Positions 5,856 to 22,989 of a DNA stretch of 64,000 nt are shown in pieces. Below the pieces are notes generated by a model, which had not been told where the DNA came from, made no database searches, and saw only the letters and a list, made by a program, of their open reading frames with translations. The stretch is from Candidatus Kaiserbacteria bacterium (GTDB lineage Bacteria > Patescibacteriota > Minisyncoccia > Phycocordibacterales > Phycocordibacteraceae). Both the position numbers and the translations under genes were made by a program. The stretch is taken from NCBI GenBank assembly GCA_963699165.1, contig OY969413.1, forward strand, positions 660,562 to 724,561. The letters are read 5' to 3'. Position 1 is the stretch's first letter. Each line of letters opens with the position of its first letter.

Positions 5856-8528
5856 CTATTGTATCTGGGTAAGCGACAGGAGACTGAATGTCGTTAATGA
5901 GCCGCTGGGGTAGACAACATTTTGTAGCGAACATGAAAGACCGACTTTATTGCCGTAGTTATTGTTGGCTGCAATAACGATAGGCGTCGAGGTTGCAATT
6001 ACGGTTGCCCCAGGTGTCCCGTAATATTCATAGAGATTGGGATAACCGGGCGCACCACCACCCACACTGCAAGATGCGCCCTGCTGACCGTTCCCGATAG
6101 TCGTAGATGCCATAGCGATGCGAAAAGATGCAACATACACACCACCCGAGACAACCGGAATACCAGCAGTGTAAACGTAGGCACCGTAGTTTGGGTTCGC
6201 CCCGGTGCCAGTGAAATTGAAAGATGGGTTGCCTAAATCATCTGTACCAAGCACAACTCCACCCTGTGCGGTCCACTTATACGAGGAAATGAGTTGCGGA
6301 TTTGGAAGCAGGTTCCCTCCCATCAGAGTGACAGTTTGGTCAGTGGAGGTCGCGACGGGACTTTGCCCATTCTGGCTTACGACAGCGAAATGGTATGTGC
6401 TGCTAGCGGTGAGATTTTGAAGTGTCACAGTATGACTTGTGACGAGCGACGCATCAAGCGGCGAGGACGCGCCATACCCACTCGTGGGGCCGTATGCGAC
6501 TTGCGAACTTGATGGCAGGTCGGTTGTCCAAGTAATTGTAGTGCCGGTCGCCGTTGTCGAGCCAGTGGATATATTGCTAATGGTTGGCGCCCCGTACAAA
6601 GACGAGCCATTCAATTCCTGCCCTTTCCCTTGGAAGAAAGCGAAGTTACCAGTCGAACCTTGCCAATAAAAACTCGATGAGTTCGCTCCGGTGTATTGGT
6701 TGCGATCAAAACTATTGCCTTGCGTTGTAAACATTGCCGCATTCGAACCGTCAGAGTCGTATGCCCCATTTATGCTACCGGCGGCCATAGTCATGGTGTT
6801 GTTGTGTACATGAACATTCTGTACTAGCCACGGACCGTTCGATGGATACAATGTCGACGTACCCCTAGATGAGTTTAGCAACATTACGGCAGCACCGAGA
6901 TTGCTTGGAAGCATTGTGTTTGCTGATATTTCGACAGATTTTCCGTTAATTCCACCCGAGTTTGCAATAAATATATCCCCAGACCACATATTCCGATTTG
7001 ACCCATGAAAGTTATTGGCTAAATAGTTATCGTGGATTGACGCATCCCATGATATTTCCAAATCAATACCGGACGACCAATTATTCTCCACGTCATTATG
7101 CGCAATGACCGCGCCCTCGTTGTCGGTGTCCAACCATATGCCAGGCCCATGATTATCGTGAACGTAATTGTAAATAATTTGTATATTTTCTGTCTGCCAT
7201 GATTTGCCACCACCGCACTCTGCGGTAGACGGATTAGTGCAATAAACATCGGCTGGATTGTTATTCGATATGATGTTGTCGCTAATAACCGCTCCGCCGA
7301 GATCTCCGGTGCCTCCGGTTTCATACACTTTGTACCCCTCTTGTCCATTGTCGTGAATGTAGTTGGCCACTATCTTGTCGCCTGCGCCTATATTGACTCC
7401 GCTCGCACCGTTAAACGCTAACTCGTTATTGGAAATCACTGTGCTTGTACCATATACCTGTAATTCAGAACTTCCTGCTGACGAATTGTAATTTTTAATT
7501 ATTAGGTTCTGTATCGTTACATAACTGCCCGTATCAAAAGCACTGGTCGTTGTAGCCGCCCCATCTAATACCGCACCATAAGAACCGATTATGGTATCTC
7601 TGTCAGGAATCCAAGCATGTTGACTGGTATACGTACCGGCAGCGAGACAGAATGAAGTGCCAGAAGGATAGCTATTTACAACGGTATTGATGTTATTCCC
7701 AGGCGAGATAGCAACTGAACCGGCGGGACATGTTATTGACTGCTGCGGCCCTACTGCAACACGAGGTCCGTAGTTCTCGATGGCCGAACACTGTGCGGTA
7801 CTGCCGCCATTGCTGCCTCCGCAGCTCCATGTCCACGGACCCGAGCCCGAAACGCTTGAAGCATTACCCACGGTGCAGAGGTTAGTGGTCGGAGCACTCA
7901 CGAGAGTCTGACCGTTCGAAGAGCCGCAGACGCCGTTGATTGGTGTGATGCTATTGATTGGTGTGATGCTAGGTGTTTGCGTCTGATTTCCAGAAAACAC
8001 TCCTCCGAAAGCGGAGCCATTGCCGGTCGGAACCCACCATGGTTGTGAATTTGCTGATGCGGTTGTGGTTGCACCGGTCGTTTGATTTGTGGGTGGAGTT
8101 GTCGTCGCTGTCGTATTTTGCAGTGTAGGAATCACGGATGATTGGTTGCTGGAAGTGTCTTGGGTTGTAGCAACTGAACTACTGCCCGCAGAGATAGTTG
8201 CAATTTTGGCGCGCGTCAACGGACCAAGAAATCCTGTGGCCGGCAAATTTTGCGATGCTTGAAATCGCACTAATGCTTTGTACGTGAGAAGACCGAAAAA
8301 ATCGGTTTCGTTTCCGGGAGAACCGTTGCCTTTTTGAGCAATGACAAAACCCTGCGAGTTGAGAAATTGCTGAAGCTGAAGAATTTCTGTTCCTGTATCG
8401 TTGAGTTGATGGTTTTTAACTAACGAGGGAGGGGTGGCAGCGAATGTTTGAGTAGCAAAAGTGACCGCAACGAAGATTCCAGCGATTAGTGCCACTCGTG
8501 AAGATATGTTCGATACCATATGTCTCAT
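5856..8528 (-). CDS. Large secreted or cell-surface protein: signal/anchor, PG_binding_1-like domain, Thr-rich linker, right-handed parallel beta-helix (pectate-lyase-like) repeats, FN3-like domain.
   Basis: N-terminal hydrophobic segment. LQQFLNSQGF...GNGSPGNETDFFGLLTYKALVRFQ resembles PG-binding domain 1. NNxxAxNGxxG beta-helix repeats. TWTTDLPSSSQVAYG...YHFAVVS is FN3-like. Confidence 0.7.
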   Translation of the reverse strand: MRHMVSNISSRVALIAGIFVAVTFATQTFAATPPSLVKNHQLNDTGTEILQLQQFLNSQGFVIAQKGNGSPGNETDFFGLLTYKALVRFQASQNLPATGFLGPLTRAKIATISAGSSSVATTQDTSSNQSSVIPTLQNTTATTTPPTNQTTGATTTASANSQPWWVPTGNGSAFGGVFSGNQTQTPSITPINSITPINGVCGSSNGQTLVSAPTTNLCTVGNASSVSGSGPWTWSCGGSNGGSTAQCSAIENYGPRVAVGPQQSITCPAGSVAISPGNNINTVVNSYPSGTSFCLAAGTYTSQHAWIPDRDTIIGSYGAVLDGAATTTSAFDTGSYVTIQNLIIKNYNSSAGSSELQVYGTSTVISNNELAFNGASGVNIGAGDKIVANYIHDNGQEGYKVYETGGTGDLGGAVISDNIISNNNPADVYCTNPSTAECGGGKSWQTENIQIIYNYVHDNHGPGIWLDTDNEGAVIAHNDVENNWSSGIDLEISWDASIHDNYLANNFHGSNRNMWSGDIFIANSGGINGKSVEISANTMLPSNLGAAVMLLNSSRGTSTLYPSNGPWLVQNVHVHNNTMTMAAGSINGAYDSDGSNAAMFTTQGNSFDRNQYTGANSSSFYWQGSTGNFAFFQGKGQELNGSSLYGAPTISNISTGSTTATGTTITWTTDLPSSSQVAYGPTSGYGASSPLDASLVTSHTVTLQNLTASSTYHFAVVSQNGQSPVATSTDQTVTLMGGNLLPNPQLISSYKWTAQGGVVLGTDDLGNPSFNFTGTGANPNYGAYVYTAGIPVVSGGVYVASFRIAMASTTIGNGQQGASCSVGGGAPGYPNLYEYYGTPGATVIATSTPIVIAANNNYGNKVGLSCSLQNVVYPSGSLTTFSLLSLTQIQ

Positions 8529-8537
8529 CTATAGTAA

Positions 8538-8546
8538 CCCCCCCCC
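8538..8546 (-). repeat. Homopolymeric C9 (G9 on the coding strand) 9 nt upstream of the ATG of the 890-aa surface protein, acting as its Shine-Dalgarno/spacer.
   Basis: Read directly: ...TTTTCGGGGGGGGGTTACTATAG ATG on the minus strand. Confidence 0.6.
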
Positions 8547-8741
8547 GAAAATCCTGTCTTCGGACAACTGGGGATAACTTTTTTCTCGCTAGTCATAAAA
8601 ATGAAAAGGGCTCCTAAGTCACTAGACCTTTCGGATCCCTCTTCGTCTTGATGAGCGCATTATACACGCGTCGAATTGATTTGCAATGAAGGCGTGTGCA
8701 CTTTAAGCACTGCTGAATAGCAGCGCGGACTGGCCACAAAC

Positions 8742-14729: not shown

Positions 14730-15134
14730 TTACCAAATCTCGAAGAGGTCTTCTCCGCCGACGCGGTTCTTGCGTGCCTCCGCATCGGAAATGATGCCGA
14801 GCGAAGAAGACATGATGCGCGCTCCCGTGCCGCCCTTCACGCGATGCGCCTCCGTGTGCGGAGCGTAAAGGCGGCGGCCCGGCTTGCTGATGCGCTTCAC
14901 GCCGCGGAGCTTTGCCTGACCGCGCTCGTTATAGGCGAGTGTAACAACAAGATCTTTCTTAATCTCGCTTTCGCCGCGCGCCTTCACATCGACGCTTTCA
15001 ATAAAGCCAAGCTCCTTGAGCTTCTTTGCGATTGCCGAAAGATGCACCGAGTACGGCACCGTCACATCGCGCTTGCCGATGAGTGCGGCATTTTGCAAAC
15101 GAATTATGAAATCTCCAACGCGGTCGCTTACCAT
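14730..15134 (-). CDS. rpsH: 30S ribosomal protein S8.
   Basis: S8 sequence and synteny. Confidence 0.9.
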
Positions 15135-15397
15135 GATGCTTTCTTAACGCCCGGAATCTTTCCCTCGAGCGCGAGCTCGCGGAACTGGATGCGGGACAAC
15201 CCAAAGGTGCGCATATAGCCGCGCGAACGACCGGTAATCGCGCAGCGGTTCTTCAAACGGGACGGAGCGGAGTTTCTCGGGAGCGCCTGCAGGCCTGCAG
15301 AATCACCGGCCAGCTTCAAAGCCGCACGCTTTACCGCGTACTTCTTCACGAGTTTCGCCTTTTTGGCGTATCGCGCGAGCTGGGATTTTTTGGCCAT
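15128..15397 (-). CDS. rpsN: 30S ribosomal protein S14 (long, non-zinc form).
   Basis: ...[42 protein letters not shown]. Confidence 0.85.
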
Positions 15398-15523
15398 AAG
15401 GTTGCTTACTTTCGACGTTCGTTCGGAAAAAGAGAAGCGAACCTTCTCTTTTTACTCACTCACTGGAAAGTAAAAAATAAAGCTCCGAGGAGCGTTCAGG
15501 TACTGTATCAAATAGCGTCTACG

Positions 15524-16616
15524 GCGTCAAACCTGTGTACGCGTCCAGTACTTTTGGCAGTCCCCGACGGTTAATGTACACACAATATACCGCAAGGGGG
15601 ACACCATGCCGAGCGACTGGTGCGGGCGTTTGGTGTTGTACCAAATCAGCCAGTCGACAAGCTTCAGATTGAAGGAATGAATATCGTCCCGCAGCAGGCC
15701 CCGATTCAGCATGATGAAGTCCTCGGAGACGGTGCGATTGAATCGTTCGACGTGGGCATTCATCTTGGGAGTGCGGGGGCGGGTGTGAAAGTGCGTGAGC
15801 CCGAGTTCGGCACAGGCATCCTCGAAGTGTTTGGCGAACTCGCTCCCGTTGTCGGTCTGCAACTCGTCGATATCGAAGGGGCAAACCTCGATGACTCGGC
15901 GAAGGAAGTCGTCCGCGCTTCTCGACGAGTGGTTCGTATACGCGCCCGCAAAGGCGAACTTCCGCTCCACGTCCACTGCCGTGAGGACGTACCGCTTCAC
16001 GCCGTCGATGAAGCGGACGACGGTATCGAGCTCCATGCCGCGCTTGCCGGTGCGGCGAAGCTTGGTACGGCGTTTCTGCGGTGTTTCCGTGTGATTGCCC
16101 GTACGTGCGTGGAACGAGAGCCGGCTCTGCTGCGGGAGCAGACCGCGGTTCTTCAAATCCAGAATGACCCGCCCAACGTATGACTCCGACACGGAGTACC
16201 CTTCTTCGCGCAGGAGAACGGCAAGCTTTGCTTTCCCAAGCCGGGGATGCGCCTGTCGTTCGCGGATGATGAAATCCTCGACCTCGGGCAGAACAGTCCT
16301 CCTTCGACGCGCCTTCGGCGCAGTGCTCTTCGGGTCAAGTGCATCAATGCGGCCCTCGTGGGCTTTGAGTTCCTCCTTCCAGCGATACAAGGTGCGCTCC
16401 GAGGTGCCAAAGGCGTCGTATGCGGCCTCCGTCCCGTGCATGTCCCAGAATCCCAATATCTTCACCCGTCTGTCGACTTCCTTTGGTTTCCGCATATGCC
16501 GCAATCGTATCGTCCTTTCCCACATGCTCAACCAGCCCTTCGTACCCCTGAAATTGCTTCTGATGTGCATATATCCTCGGTTATGAGGACTGCCAAATGT
16601 ATCTGAACTTATGCAA
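15524..16616 (-). mobile_element. IS481-family insertion sequence, copy A (~1.09 kb), inserted between rplE and rpsN. Imperfect ~30-bp terminal IRs TGTACGCGTCCAGTACTTTTGGCAGTCC / TGCATAAGTTCAGATACATTTGGCAGTCC.
   Basis: Near-identical direct copy of 21898..22989. IRs read directly. The left boundary is ambiguous by ~10 bp because both copies share CGTCAAA, then 4 mismatches, then TGTAC. Confidence 0.75.
15527..16570 (-). CDS. IS481-family DDE transposase (rve integrase core; 347 aa).
   Basis: N-terminal HTH region, then D...D...E core with LQTDNGSEF and ERFNRT...[11 protein letters not shown]. Confidence 0.8.
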   Translation of the reverse strand: MHIRSNFRGTKGWLSMWERTIRLRHMRKPKEVDRRVKILGFWDMHGTEAAYDAFGTSERTLYRWKEELKAHEGRIDALDPKSTAPKARRRRTVLPEVEDFIIRERQAHPRLGKAKLAVLLREEGYSVSESYVGRVILDLKNRGLLPQQSRLSFHARTGNHTETPQKRRTKLRRTGKRGMELDTVVRFIDGVKRYVLTAVDVERKFAFAGAYTNHSSRSADDFLRRVIEVCPFDIDELQTDNGSEFAKHFEDACAELGLTHFHTRPRTPKMNAHVERFNRTVSEDFIMLNRGLLRDDIHSFNLKLVDWLIWYNTKRPHQSLGMVSPLRYIVCTLTVGDCQKYWTRTQV

Positions 16617-16661
16617 CCTGATGGTGAGCAGGAATCGTGCTACCCGATAGAGGCAAAATGC

Positions 16662-17195
16662 TCAAGAATTTAACAAAACATCAACCAGCAATCTCAGGGT
16701 TTTATAACCGTTCTCAACTAACAATCTGTCTCTTCTATCATCAGGATTCTTCGCGCCATGGAATAAGTTATTTCTTATGGAATGCCAGAACTCAATCATA
16801 TTAACCCAATCCGAAAGATCCCTGATTTTCCCTTGTTCTACGCATATATGCTCTCTCGGATTCTCCTTTCCCGCGTGTGAACATTCCCAATACCAGATCG
16901 TATCAATCTCACCATTTTCACCGAGTGTACCCAACGGGCGAGTATCGAGCTCCTCTTTAATTATTTGCCAGGACTGATTCAGTTCTTGCTTTTCCTTAAC
17001 TAACGCCAAATATTCGTCCTTGTAGTAAGTGTCACGCTTTAATTCTCTGATTGCATTTGAATCAAGATTCTGGTCTACATATTTAACTCTCTTTAGAAAT
17101 CCTACAAAGGCGAGGTACTCAAAAACATATTTTGAAAAGTAGTCGTCATCTCCAGCTTTCAAATGCCAATTTCTAACAAGCTGCGTGTAATCCAT
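16662..17195 (-). CDS. Hypothetical 177-aa protein with a C-terminal Rx4HG (WHSIRNNLFHG) HEPN-like motif; candidate RNase toxin or abortive-infection effector. Sits in an AT-rich islet.
   Basis: ORF track. The motif is read directly. Composition is visibly AT-richer than the flanking r-protein genes. Confidence 0.45.
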   Translation of the reverse strand: MDYTQLVRNWHLKAGDDDYFSKYVFEYLAFVGFLKRVKYVDQNLDSNAIRELKRDTYYKDEYLALVKEKQELNQSWQIIKEELDTRPLGTLGENGEIDTIWYWECSHAGKENPREHICVEQGKIRDLSDWVNMIEFWHSIRNNLFHGAKNPDDRRDRLLVENGYKTLRLLVDVLLNS

Positions 17196-17215
17196 ATTTA
17201 GGCCTTAGACCAGCG

Positions 17216-18076
17216 TCATTTATCCCAATGTCTTTCTGGAGGTTGCAAATGGAGATTGGTCAAATCTGAGAGTTTTGTTCCCTGGCCTTCTTTATTTCTC
17301 GATACGATAAGTTGTTTCCCAGCTTGAGCAAGATCTCTCACGTCTTTGTCGTCAGATTTCAGCGCTTCATCTACGGCGTCTTCCGCCCACACGTTGCCAT
17401 ATTCCTCATAGAAATTGAAGACTGGCCGGAGTCTTTGCAATATTTCTTTTATTGCCTCAATCTCCTTAACGGAAAAAATGCTTAGTCCTTTATCGTCCGC
17501 TGGGAACCATTTCTCGGCTAAATCCTTTACAAAATAAGAATTCCAGCTCGCCACAAATCTGGGAAGAACCTCTTTGCCACCGATAAACGCAGCTCCGAGC
17601 CATGTAATTTTCTTTTGCAGAGCGTCAAAGATAAACGCGGAAAGCTGATCCCTGGCTTCTTGATTTGGAAATGATTCGAGGAAAATTTCCAAAACATCGT
17701 TCGCAGGCGGGTTCTTTCCGAAAATGTAAAGTTCGGCGAATTTGTCTACCTCGCCAATCGAATAAAATTCTTGTACAAGAAAAGAATCCTGAGTTCTATT
17801 TAAATTTCTCGCATTGAGGGCCAGTTCGTCAAATTTTTTCAAGCGCTCCGAATCTGAATCACCTATATTGCCCCGCATGTCAGCAACAATAGATTCCTTT
17901 ATTCCCCGTACGATACTTTCTTCAGCCTCATTTTCTACGCGTACTGGAGTGGTAAGTAATCGAGACATATCACCAATATTCACATTGGCCTTATCGATAA
18001 TTTCTTTCTTGACCAAGCCCATCCATTCCGGAAGTGGCAGATGATCTTTAAGAAATGGGTTAGTTTGTTCGCGCAT
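17216..18076 (-). CDS. Hypothetical 286-aa protein, upstream partner of the HEPN-like gene, in the same AT-rich islet. No recognisable motif.
   Basis: ORF track. 20-nt spacing to the downstream gene suggests co-transcription. Confidence 0.45.
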   Translation of the reverse strand: MREQTNPFLKDHLPLPEWMGLVKKEIIDKANVNIGDMSRLLTTPVRVENEAEESIVRGIKESIVADMRGNIGDSDSERLKKFDELALNARNLNRTQDSFLVQEFYSIGEVDKFAELYIFGKNPPANDVLEIFLESFPNQEARDQLSAFIFDALQKKITWLGAAFIGGKEVLPRFVASWNSYFVKDLAEKWFPADDKGLSIFSVKEIEAIKEILQRLRPVFNFYEEYGNVWAEDAVDEALKSDDKDVRDLAQAGKQLIVSRNKEGQGTKLSDLTNLHLQPPERHWDK

Positions 18077-18129
18077 GGCCTTTGCTATGTCAGATGAACT
18101 CAGATCATCTCTTTTGGTTTTATTGGAGA

Positions 18130-18678
18130 CTATTTCTTCCCCGCCTCAACGATGAGCGGCATGCCGAGATGACGGAAGAAAGCCTCGGCCTCGGCCTTCC
18201 CTTTTGCGGTCGTCACAATGGTGATTGCGAGCCCGAAAACATCCTTAAGGTCTTCATCGCTCGTCTCGGGGAAAATGGTATTTTCCTTAATGCCGATCGT
18301 GAAATTACCCATGTCGTCGATGGCTTTCGGAGACAAGCCGCGGAAGTCGCGCGTTCGCGGAAGAGCGATGTGAATGAGTTTGTCGAGAAAATCGTACATG
18401 CGGGCGCCGCGAAGCGTCACTTGAAGTCCGACCGTGTCGCCTTGGCGAACCTTGAAGGACGCGATTGAGAGGCGCGCGGCGCGCGGCGCGGGCTTCTGCC
18501 CCGTAATCGTGGCGAGGCGGTCTTGAATAAGTTCAATCTGCTTCTTGTCGCGCTTCTTGCCGACGCCGGTCGAGACGACGACTTTGCTAATGCGCGGACC
18601 TTGCATCGGACTCGTGTATCCGAAAGTTTCCGCAAGTGCGAGATAGGCTGACTGCTGGCGCTGTTTGGTAATTGACAT
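18130..18678 (-). CDS. rplE: 50S ribosomal protein L5.
   Basis: L5 sequence. Follows rplX. Confidence 0.9.
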   Translation of the reverse strand: MSITKQRQQSAYLALAETFGYTSPMQGPRISKVVVSTGVGKKRDKKQIELIQDRLATITGQKPAPRAARLSIASFKVRQGDTVGLQVTLRGARMYDFLDKLIHIALPRTRDFRGLSPKAIDDMGNFTIGIKENTIFPETSDEDLKDVFGLAITIVTTAKGKAEAEAFFRHLGMPLIVEAGKK

Positions 18679-21897: not shown

Positions 21898-22989
21898 TCG
21901 TCAAATAGTTGTACGCGTCCAGTACTTTTGGCAGTCCCCGACGGTTAATGTACACACAATATACCGCAAGGGGGACACCATGCCGAGCGACTGGTGCGGG
22001 CGTTTGGTGTTGTACCAGATCAGCCAGTCGACAAGCTTCAGATTGAAGGAATGAATATCGTCCCGCAGCAGGCCCCGATTCAGCATGATGAAGTCCTCGG
22101 AGACGGTGCGATTGAATCGTTCGACGTGGGCATTCATCTTGGGAGTGCGGGGGCGGGTGTGAAAGTGCGTGAGACCGAGTTCGGCACAGGCATCCTCGAA
22201 GTGTTTGGCGAACTCGCTCCCGTTGTCGGTCTGCAACTCGTCGATATCGAAGGGGCAAACCTCGATGACTCGGCGAAGGAAGTCGTCCGCGCTTCTCGAC
22301 GAGTGGTTCGTATACGCGCCCGCAAAGGCGAACTTCCGCTCCACGTCCACTGCCGTGAGGACGTACCGCTTCACGCCGTCGATGAAGCGGACGACGGTAT
22401 CGAGCTCCATGCCGCGCTTGCCGGTGCGGCGAAGCTTGGTACGGCGTTTCTGCGGTGTTTCCGTGTGATTGCCCGTACGTGCGTGGAACGAGAGCCGGCT
22501 CTGCTGCGGGAGCAGACCGCGGTTCTTCAAATCCAGAATGACCCGCCCAACGTATGACTCCGACACGGAGTGCCCTTCTTCGCGCAGGAGAACGGCAAGC
22601 TTTGCTTTCCCAAGCCGGGGATGCGCCTGTCGTTCGCGGATGATGAAATCCTCGACCTCGGGCAGAACAGTCCTCCTTCGACGCGCCTTCGGCGCAGTGC
22701 TCTTCGGGTCAAGTGCATCAATGCGGCCCTCGTGGGCTTTGAGTTCCTCCTTCCAGCGATACAAGGTGCGCTCCGAGGTGCCAAAGGCGTCGTATGCGGC
22801 CTCCGTCCCGTGCATGTCCCAGAATCCCAATATCTTCACCCGTCTGTCGACTTCCTTTGGTTTCCGCATATGCCGCAATCGTATCGTCCTTTCCCACATG
22901 CTCAACCAGCCCTTCGTACCCCTGAAATTGCTTCTGATGCGCATATATCCTCGGTTATGAGGACTGCCAAATGTATCTGAACTTATGCA
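21898..22989 (-). mobile_element. IS481-family insertion sequence, copy B, inserted between rplB and rpsS. A handful of SNPs relative to copy A.
   Basis: Direct comparison with 15524..16616. Same terminal IRs. Confidence 0.75.
21901..22944 (-). CDS. IS481-family DDE transposase, copy B (start MRIRSNFRG; the track ORF is extended into flanking sequence).
   Basis: Near-identical to 15527..16570, apart from a few substitutions such as H2R. Confidence 0.8.

Follow-up and report, generated by a model that had tools for sequence, protein, structure and literature searches.

What is a gene of a kind usually housed in defence loci doing in the middle of a ribosomal-protein operon? The question is raised by a stretch of 64,000 nucleotides (nt) from Candidatus Kaiserbacteria bacterium (contig OY969413.1), referred to here as the window, in which rplE and rpsN, two genes of the spc operon that are normally adjacent, are separated by an AT-rich islet with two open reading frames (ORFs), and by an IS481-like insertion sequence (IS). 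The ORFs encode an orphan protein of 286 amino acids (aa) and a 177-aa protein of the HEPN type. The explanation favoured here, which we hold to be moderately probable as a whole, is that the islet was acquired horizontally and inserted between rplE and rpsN, that it combines a displaced, defence-type solo HEPN gene with an unrelated orphan, and that the IS arrived later. The 177-aa protein belongs to a widespread, unnamed HEPN family of a known kind, that of the solo HEPN ribonucleases (RNases) embedded in defence loci, and does not represent a new type of system.

This explanation starts from the 177-aa protein, which had initially been annotated as HEPN-like on account of an Rx4H motif within the sequence WHSIRNNLFHG (residues 137–147). 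A search with the single sequence recovers at least 154 homologs, and a profile search at least 703 clusters at 90% identity. These homologs are approximately 177–208 aa long, consist of the HEPN domain only, and are all labelled “hypothetical”, none of them with a Pfam domain. The residues RNNLFH are invariant in all 56 homologs aligned, as are W10-H11, FEYLAF (25–30), W103, and D129-W130, and the window protein retains all 29 of the residues that are invariant in the family. The AlphaFold2 (AF2) model built from the family alignment (predicted local distance difference test, pLDDT, 91; predicted template modelling score, pTM, 0.88) is all-alpha, with core helices at residues 3–16, 19–38, 130–145, and 154–176, and an insert of approximately 90 residues, formed by helices and a hairpin, between core helices 2 and 3. 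The RNNLFH motif closes the last core helix but one (130–145) and opens the loop that leads to the final helix, while the invariant E26 lies in the second helix (19–38), outside an Ex3[KR] context.

The HEPN domains are described as four-helix up-down bundles, in many cases interrupted by an insert between the second and third helices, with a polar residue (N, D, or H) directly after the arginine of the motif, and a conserved acidic residue in helix 2, close to the motif (PMC3710099). The bundle with its helix 2–3 insert, the motif at the described position at a helix end, and the polar residue (N142) are all found in the 177-aa protein, for which E26 is the candidate acidic residue. Because the model and the alignment fit the bundle, the motif, and the polar residue, the assignment of the protein to a divergent HEPN family with an intact Rx4H site is well supported by sequence conservation and predicted structure, and the original assignment, for which structure prediction had been proposed as a check, is upheld. 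By analogy with other HEPN proteins, it is predicted to be a dimeric, metal-independent endoribonuclease.

The divergence of the family is apparent in the database searches. Foldseek found nothing significant for the model in the PDB (best E 0.73) or among the viral structures of BFVD, and the family profile matched no solved HEPN structure significantly in the PDB. No model from Pfam, NCBIfam, PADLOC, or PHROGs covers the 177-aa protein or its 286-aa neighbor, and none of the HEPN models of Pfam matches any of the 56 family members, even at E values of up to 5. In PADLOC, a few of these members return sporadic, weak CARF_HEPN matches (E ≥ 0.007), which speak for the HEPN assignment, and one of the 56 has a weak match to PDC-S06 (E 3e-4). 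A Cys/His pattern in the helix 2–3 insert, W-x-C-x-[CH]-x6-11-H-x-C, is restricted to 10 of the 56 members, namely the window protein and the nine relatives closest to it, and may represent a zinc knuckle acquired by one subclade, with a putative capacity for metal binding.

A scan of 185,579 species genomes returned 49 loci of the family, in which the neighboring genes were called by a simple ORF procedure, labelled by phmmer, with seeds from annotated loci, and annotated in part. The loci are distributed through the Patescibacteria, Bacteroidota, Omnitrophota, Elusimicrobia, Proteobacteria, Bdellovibrionota, and Acidobacteriota (including the isolate Acidipila rosea DSM 103428), and, in the Archaea, the Nanoarchaeota, Bathyarchaeia, Thermoplasmata, and Methanosarcinaceae, with a strong representation of the Patescibacteria and DPANN-type archaea. 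At 11 of the 49 loci, hsdM lies directly upstream and hsdS directly downstream of the HEPN gene, with gaps of −38 to +5 nt, that is, the genes are translationally coupled, with overlaps of stop and start codons, and three further loci are linked to type I restriction-modification (R-M). The place between hsdM and hsdS is the most frequent setting of the gene. Of the 22 loci that come closest to the window protein (41–57% identity), 12 show a linkage to R-M. Precomputed Pfam annotation gives the order hsdM-HEPN-hsdS-hsdR at four of six homologs on long contigs (P0095, P0104, P0008, and P0021), with the HEPN gene following a CTD10-MC6-DUF2326 (ABC-3C) system in the fifth (P0040) and lying among unknown genes in the sixth (P0012).

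At other loci, different defence genes lie upstream of the family member, on the same strand. These include GmrSD (L050 and L051), a Schlafen-group-3 helicase (L042), an HSDR_N-like protein (L043), a NucS_C+DUF5655 nuclease (L071), and AAA/NACHT-type (STAND-like) proteins of 1611–2162 aa (L033, L039, L040, and L056). An ABC-3C ATPase with a DUF2326 domain directly precedes the HEPN gene on the same strand at three independent loci (L001/L020, 5010–8543; L037, 1010–3325; L070, 2–999), the first of which (L001) holds a complete CTD10-MC6-DUF2326 system, with a 76-aa ORF before the HEPN gene. No member of the family was found in the IMG/VR viral contigs, INPHARED phages, PLSDB plasmids, or BFVD. 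Judged from these neighborhoods, the profile of the family is that of a horizontally mobile defence accessory gene, whose usual home is in defence loci, which agrees with the defence association proposed initially for the locus, as far as the 177-aa protein is concerned.

Two of the loci deserve separate mention. In Candidatus Tepidiaquacella proteinivora (CP054675, 2.4 Mb; L007/L008, 5361–9906), an AAA_13 gene of the PrrC/RloC type and a solo HEPN gene both lie between hsdM and hsdS, in a type I R-M operon that also holds a Schlafen/AlbA_2 gene. On an alphaproteobacterial chromosome (OZ244156.1; L061, approximately 7800–8700), two adjacent ORFs match the hidden Markov model (HMM) of the family, and result from a tandem duplication or from the splitting of one gene.

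The translational coupling with hsdM and hsdS also suggests stoichiometric incorporation, and the family might then be a non-catalytic accessory or regulatory subunit of the type I methyltransferase, such as an assembly or specificity factor, with the HEPN-like bundle as a mere scaffold. The lack of a significant HEPN match in Foldseek would be compatible with this, as would the recurrent, weak matches of 25 of the 56 members to PF07757, a predicted S-adenosylmethionine (AdoMet)-dependent methyltransferase (best E 0.0019). These matches are far below significance, however, and are probably spurious. In bacteria and archaea alike, the R, N, and H of the motif never vary, whereas non-catalytic HEPN domains typically lose the Rx4-6H motif (PMC3710099), and most of the members lie outside R-M operons, beside other defence genes. 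A non-catalytic role of this kind is considered very unlikely.

A HEPN RNase in such a setting would have precedents. The HEPN genes that lie inside R-M operons form a class already known from the literature, of which PrrC-EcoprrI is the worked example (PMC3710099). Like the present family, PrrC and RloC have a HEPN-type RNase domain with an Rx4-6H motif, and their genes lie inside hsdMSR operons, as in 11–14 of the 49 loci surveyed, although not in the window. The logic of a presumed latent RNase that backs up restriction would also be common to both (PMC3710099). In PrrC and RloC, the N-terminal part is a large regulatory domain of the ABC ATPase type, in contrast with the solo HEPN domain of 177–185 aa found here, which matches no AAA_13, Pfam, or PADLOC model for them, and the two types of gene are separate neighbors at L007/L008. 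Another parallel is provided by the solo HEPN families known from R-M operons, that is, ApeA/BMEI1217, Abi2/AbiD/AbiF, AbiU2, AbiJ, and pEK499_p136 (Anantharaman et al. 2013, PMC3710099), which are likewise small proteins with an Rx4-6H motif, a scattered phyletic pattern, and a location in R-M operons or defence islands. None of the models of these families, or of EC042_2821/DUF3644, RiboL-PSP, or Swt1, matches the present one, which has its own signature of an N-terminal W-H, the FEYLAF in helix 2, and the insert of approximately 90 residues with WWNC. The nesting of HEPN genes in other defence systems, where they act as independent anti-phage effectors, has been described for HEC-08, a DUF3644 HEPN protein of Hma systems with fused zinc-finger domains, in which mutation of the H of the Rx4-6H motif abolished defence (bioRxiv 10.1101/2024.01.29.577857, Payne et al.). 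The concept is alike, but the window protein has no HEC or PDC match in PADLOC-DB 2.0.0.

The second question is whether the 286-aa protein forms a system with the HEPN protein, as supposed in the initial annotation, which proposed a toxin-antitoxin or abortive-infection pair and rated it as the best candidate for an undescribed system, and which had named a failure of the two genes to co-occur elsewhere as refuting the proposal. Six-frame HMM searches found no HEPN-family gene, in any frame, near the four relatives of the 286-aa protein, and neither blastp nor the HMM of the 286-aa family found a neighbor of this type at approximately 55 HEPN-family loci, either upstream or downstream. Among the loci searched, only the contigs of this same strain carry both families. 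Because the two families do not co-occur at any other of these loci, the 286/177 pair is not a conserved two-gene system. At the loci of the closest HEPN relatives (58–64% identity), the upstream genes all differ, encoding a DUF2326 ATPase, a NucS_C/DUF5655 protein, HsdM, and a 149-aa membrane-like protein. The pairing is not sustained and, with solo HEPN genes in R-M operons already described as a class (PMC3710099), neither is the novelty of the kind. The observation that the pair does not resemble HepT-MntA has stood, given that the 286-aa neighbor is no nucleotidyltransferase, is predicted to be all-helical, and is not a conserved partner, and that the 177-aa protein has no DUF86 match. 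In place of the Rx4HxY of HepT, it has the motif RNNLFHGA, without the Y at +2, and it is approximately 40 residues longer, owing to the insert.

The 286-aa protein is not a diverged form of the genes found upstream of other HEPN homologs, to which it has no similarity by blastp or HMM. A “336-aa unknown” at L009 is the split C-terminus of a long HsdM. A 181-aa ORF with the sequence ALRNTFHF (L072, 1072–1617, minus strand), which lies approximately 1.8 kb from the closest 286-aa homolog and has an Rx3H spacing, is unrelated to the HEPN family, according to hhalign.

The 286-aa protein itself is acidic (isoelectric point, pI, 4.9), and its lack of any recognizable motif, pointed out at the outset, is confirmed by the family scans described above. 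Its single-sequence AF2 model (pLDDT 43) is unusable. A word-indexed search of 5.8 billion proteins recovered only the protein itself, and, with phmmer, 1.84 billion representatives yielded no more than four relatives, all of them distant (P0163, P0164, P0165, and P0166). The closest of these, P0163 (32% identity, E 7e-30), occurs in a compact, recurrent cassette (L065–L067 and L072), in which a 73-aa XRE-type helix-turn-helix (HTH) gene, the 295-aa gene, and an unknown gene for 111 aa are separated by gaps of 2 and 11 nt, with a resolvase gene nearby in one contig. This cassette may be a small mobile module. The neighbors of P0164 are a large serine recombinase and, downstream, a DUF805 gene. 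No significant match to the protein or its family was found among PDB profiles, no member of the family in viral contigs, and no nucleotidyltransferase or other known antitoxin signature in the family scans and profile searches. The 286-aa gene is an orphan from a tiny family found elsewhere in the settings of mobile elements, and was most likely transferred together with the HEPN gene as a passenger.

A partnership confined to this lineage might nevertheless exist. In this case, the islet would be a lineage-specific toxin-antitoxin or abortive-infection module, in which the acidic, helical 286-aa protein neutralizes the HEPN effector or acts as its sensor, replacing the restraint provided elsewhere by the R-M system. 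The two genes lie on the same strand, 20 nt apart, with a near-identical composition that suggests co-transfer and co-transcription, and a solo HEPN RNase outside its usual context plausibly requires restraint. The low pI of the 286-aa protein, the tight small operons of its homologs, with the XRE HTH gene and the 11-nt gap between the 295-aa and 111-aa genes, and the Cys/His knuckle of the HEPN subclade, which could be a new interaction surface, are all consistent with such a module. The absence of co-occurrence in any other genome, the four 286-aa relatives without a HEPN neighbor, the different upstream gene of each of the nearest HEPN relatives, and the lack of a nucleotidyltransferase or antitoxin signature argue against it, and we consider it unlikely.

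The favored reading, of a horizontally acquired islet with a displaced HEPN gene, is reflected in the composition and layout of the locus (Table 1). On the minus strand, the order of the features is rplE, a 53-nt spacer, the 286-aa ORF, a 20-nt spacer, the 177-aa ORF, the IS481-like element, an AT-rich segment of 138 nt, and rpsN, and both of the islet genes are co-directional with the ribosomal operon. The genes for S8 and L24 were confirmed by NCBIfam in the neighborhood, in addition to those for L5 and S14. The GC content falls from approximately 0.57 to 0.40–0.45 across positions 16400–18200, and the islet is foreign in composition, because the GC content at the third codon positions (GC3) is 0.40 in the 286-aa gene and 0.42 in the 177-aa gene, in comparison with 0.66–0.77 in the neighboring ribosomal genes, secY, and the transposase. 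Three further public assemblies carry rplE-286-177 with 100% identical DNA, on contigs that end at the IS copies. Because of these assemblies, the junction is real, and not an artefact of assembly; all the carriers found represent a single strain. No ribosomal genes were found near other members of the HEPN family among the loci examined, which makes the site in the spc operon unique to the window copy.

Table 1. Features of the islet and of its immediate surroundings, in window positions.
Feature	Position	Strand	Basis or remark
rpsN (ribosomal protein S14), downstream host gene, normally adjoins rplE	15128–15397	minus	NCBIfam PRK08881, E 7.5e-32
AT-rich remainder of the islet 3' flank, upstream of rpsN	15398–15530	minus	GC 0.435; two hairpins, one promoter-like match
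Target-site duplication ACCTG, left copy, 5 bp	15531–15535
IS481-like insertion sequence, 1080 bp (TGTACGC...TTATGCA)	15536–16615	minus	Ends from alignment with the second copy
Target-site duplication ACCTG, right copy, 5 bp	16616–16620
177-aa solo HEPN-domain gene	16662–17195	minus	Family alignment, AF2 model
Rx4H catalytic motif (predicted), codons R141-N-N-L-F-H146	16758–16775	minus	Six residues invariant in 56/56 aligned homologs
Cys/His pattern W-x-C-x-H-x8-H-x-C, residues 103–118, in the helix 2–3 insert	16842–16889	minus	Regular-expression search
Spacer between the two islet ORFs, exactly 20 nt	17196–17215	minus
286-aa orphan gene	17216–18076	minus	ORF; acidic, predicted all-helical product
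AT-rich spacer, 53 nt, rplE stop to 286-aa start, upstream edge of the islet	18077–18129	minus	GC 0.40
rplE (ribosomal protein L5)	18130–18678	minus	NCBIfam PRK00010, E 2e-61, above curated cutoff; GC3 0.69; islet starts right after the stop

The IS481-like element might be taken for the vehicle of this foreign DNA. It is flanked by a perfect 5-bp duplication (ACCTG), and its excision from the sequence leaves the DNA 3' of the 177-aa gene continuous with the AT-rich DNA at 15398–15530. Because a perfect duplication of this type represents simple transposition into a continuous sequence, the IS transposed secondarily into the 3' flank of a pre-existing islet, and was not its carrier. The possibility that the islet is cargo of the IS, or part of a composite transposon, was rejected, given that the islet lies outside the IS ends (15536/16615) and that the IS has a perfect duplication of its own; the stretch between the two IS copies of the window contains nine essential ribosomal-protein genes. 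The islet therefore totals approximately 1.65 kb, which the IS now divides into 15398–15535 and 16616–18129.

The principal elements of the initial annotation, that is, the low-GC islet between two normally adjacent ribosomal genes, the two ORFs 20 nt apart, and the unusual placement in a ribosomal operon, are all corroborated by these data. The islet was, however, taken to start at 16617, one base inside the right copy of the target duplication, and its continuation beyond the IS was overlooked. The location of the transposable element was also correct, but it can be called no more than IS481-like, given that the best NCBIfam family for the transposase, IS481 (E 9e-54), scores 182.9 bits, below the curated cutoff of 224. 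A role of the element as carrier of the islet is contradicted by the perfect duplication.

The borders of the islet contain no direct repeats or att-like sites of 9 nt or more, and consensus scans of the islet for promoters and terminators returned no more matches than in shuffled sequence. Folding of the 53-nt spacer after rplE gave no terminator, only a weak hairpin (−6.2 kcal/mol). With the IS removed from the junction, RNAfold predicts two hairpins on the minus strand between the 177-aa stop codon and rpsN, at about 15478–15500 and 15428–15455, one of them a GCTCC-loop-GGAGC followed by a T-run, and the other a stem of 11 bp, rich in A/U (−14.5 kcal/mol). Both may be remnants of terminators that came with the islet from its donor and, if they still work, transcription of rpsN and the genes after it would depend on read-through or on another, newly formed promoter. 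The one promoter-like match in this segment, at 15530..15502, is weak evidence of a promoter, with the scan being no richer than in shuffled sequence.

The location of the islet also bears on whether it has any role at all in this host. It may be an inert hitchhiker, split off from a defence island and inserted at an intergenic site that tolerates it, where the HEPN gene has no function and is decaying. The window contains none of the usual partners (hsdM/S/R and others), the location is unique in the family, the operon is an IS-active hotspot with two IS copies, and the carriers, with their identical DNA, give no sign of long-term retention. Both ORFs are intact, however, with the full set of family-invariant residues in the HEPN protein, and a useless or toxic insertion in the most highly expressed operon of the cell would be costly, while many members of the family elsewhere also lack R-M neighbors. 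The inert islet is, on balance, rather improbable.

The reading of a displaced defence gene that joined an unrelated orphan in a foreign islet must itself be set against a number of observations that weigh on the other side. The two genes, which are alike in composition and only 20 nt apart, would fit a functional pair. A tblastn search of the 64-kb window found no hsdM, hsdS, or hsdR, and the HEPN copy has no R-M gene or other recognizable defence gene as a neighbor, while 35 of the 49 surveyed loci lie outside R-M operons. The boundaries of the islet are inferred from composition and from the usual adjacency of rplE and rpsN, and an exact look-up of the rplE protein returned the same strain only, and no islet-free relative.

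In the sequence of events proposed for the displaced HEPN gene, approximately 1.65 kb of AT-rich foreign DNA would have landed in the rplE-rpsN spacer, the HEPN copy losing its usual context, with the 286-aa gene as a co-transferred passenger. Both genes are probably transcribed by read-through, because they lie in the spc operon without a convincing terminator after rplE. The HEPN protein would dimerize, as suggested by the HEPN superfamily and PrrC-EcoprrI, and R141, N142, and H146, probably with E26, would cleave RNA in a metal-independent manner, leaving 2',3'-cyclic phosphate ends. In its usual setting, the RNase activity, defence role, latency, and activation predicted by analogy would be those of a “second-line” or abortive-infection effector, which is freed when a phage disturbs the system to which it is attached. 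The IS481-like element would then have inserted into the 3' flank by ordinary transposition. A more speculative extension, which we regard as quite improbable, would make the family a minimal R-M-coupled RNase without an ATPase sensor, which binds HsdM2S1 directly and “guards the guard” in the manner of PrrC, and of which the zinc-knuckle subclade swapped its partner (here, for the 286-aa orphan) to form a new two-gene abortive-infection module, with a dose that tracks ribosome synthesis through the spc operon.

If the family is active, a compact, widespread, and unannotated HEPN RNase would join the defence genes embedded in type I R-M operons, with its 703 or more clusters distributed through the bacteria and archaea, including the genome-reduced Patescibacteria and the DPANN archaea, and would offer a simple model of how an RNase that lacks a sensor domain is silenced and triggered. 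The family lends itself well to experimental characterization. The window copy is a natural experiment, in which an effector is found out of its usual context, in the most highly expressed operon of the cell, and it bears on the real toxicity of such effectors, as well as on the tolerance of the S10-spc cluster to disruption.

The S10-spc cluster is interrupted three times in the window, with each insertion being co-directional with the operon. A second IS481-like copy (21910–22989), which is oriented like the first and 99.6% identical to it, is found a short distance upstream of rpsS, and its flanks (ATAGT/GCAGT) agree at three of the five positions, in comparison with the perfect duplication of the first copy. 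The transposase ORF does not terminate within the element, and in both copies it continues for 9 nt beyond the IS end, to a TGA provided by the same flanking heptamer (CGTCAAA on the plus strand), which lies 4 nt outside the IS (15525–15535 and 21899–21909). This heptamer also provides the −35-like TTGACG of the promoter-like match at 15530..15502. The flank shared by the two copies, which are only two in number, could reflect either a target-site preference or selection for the stop codon.

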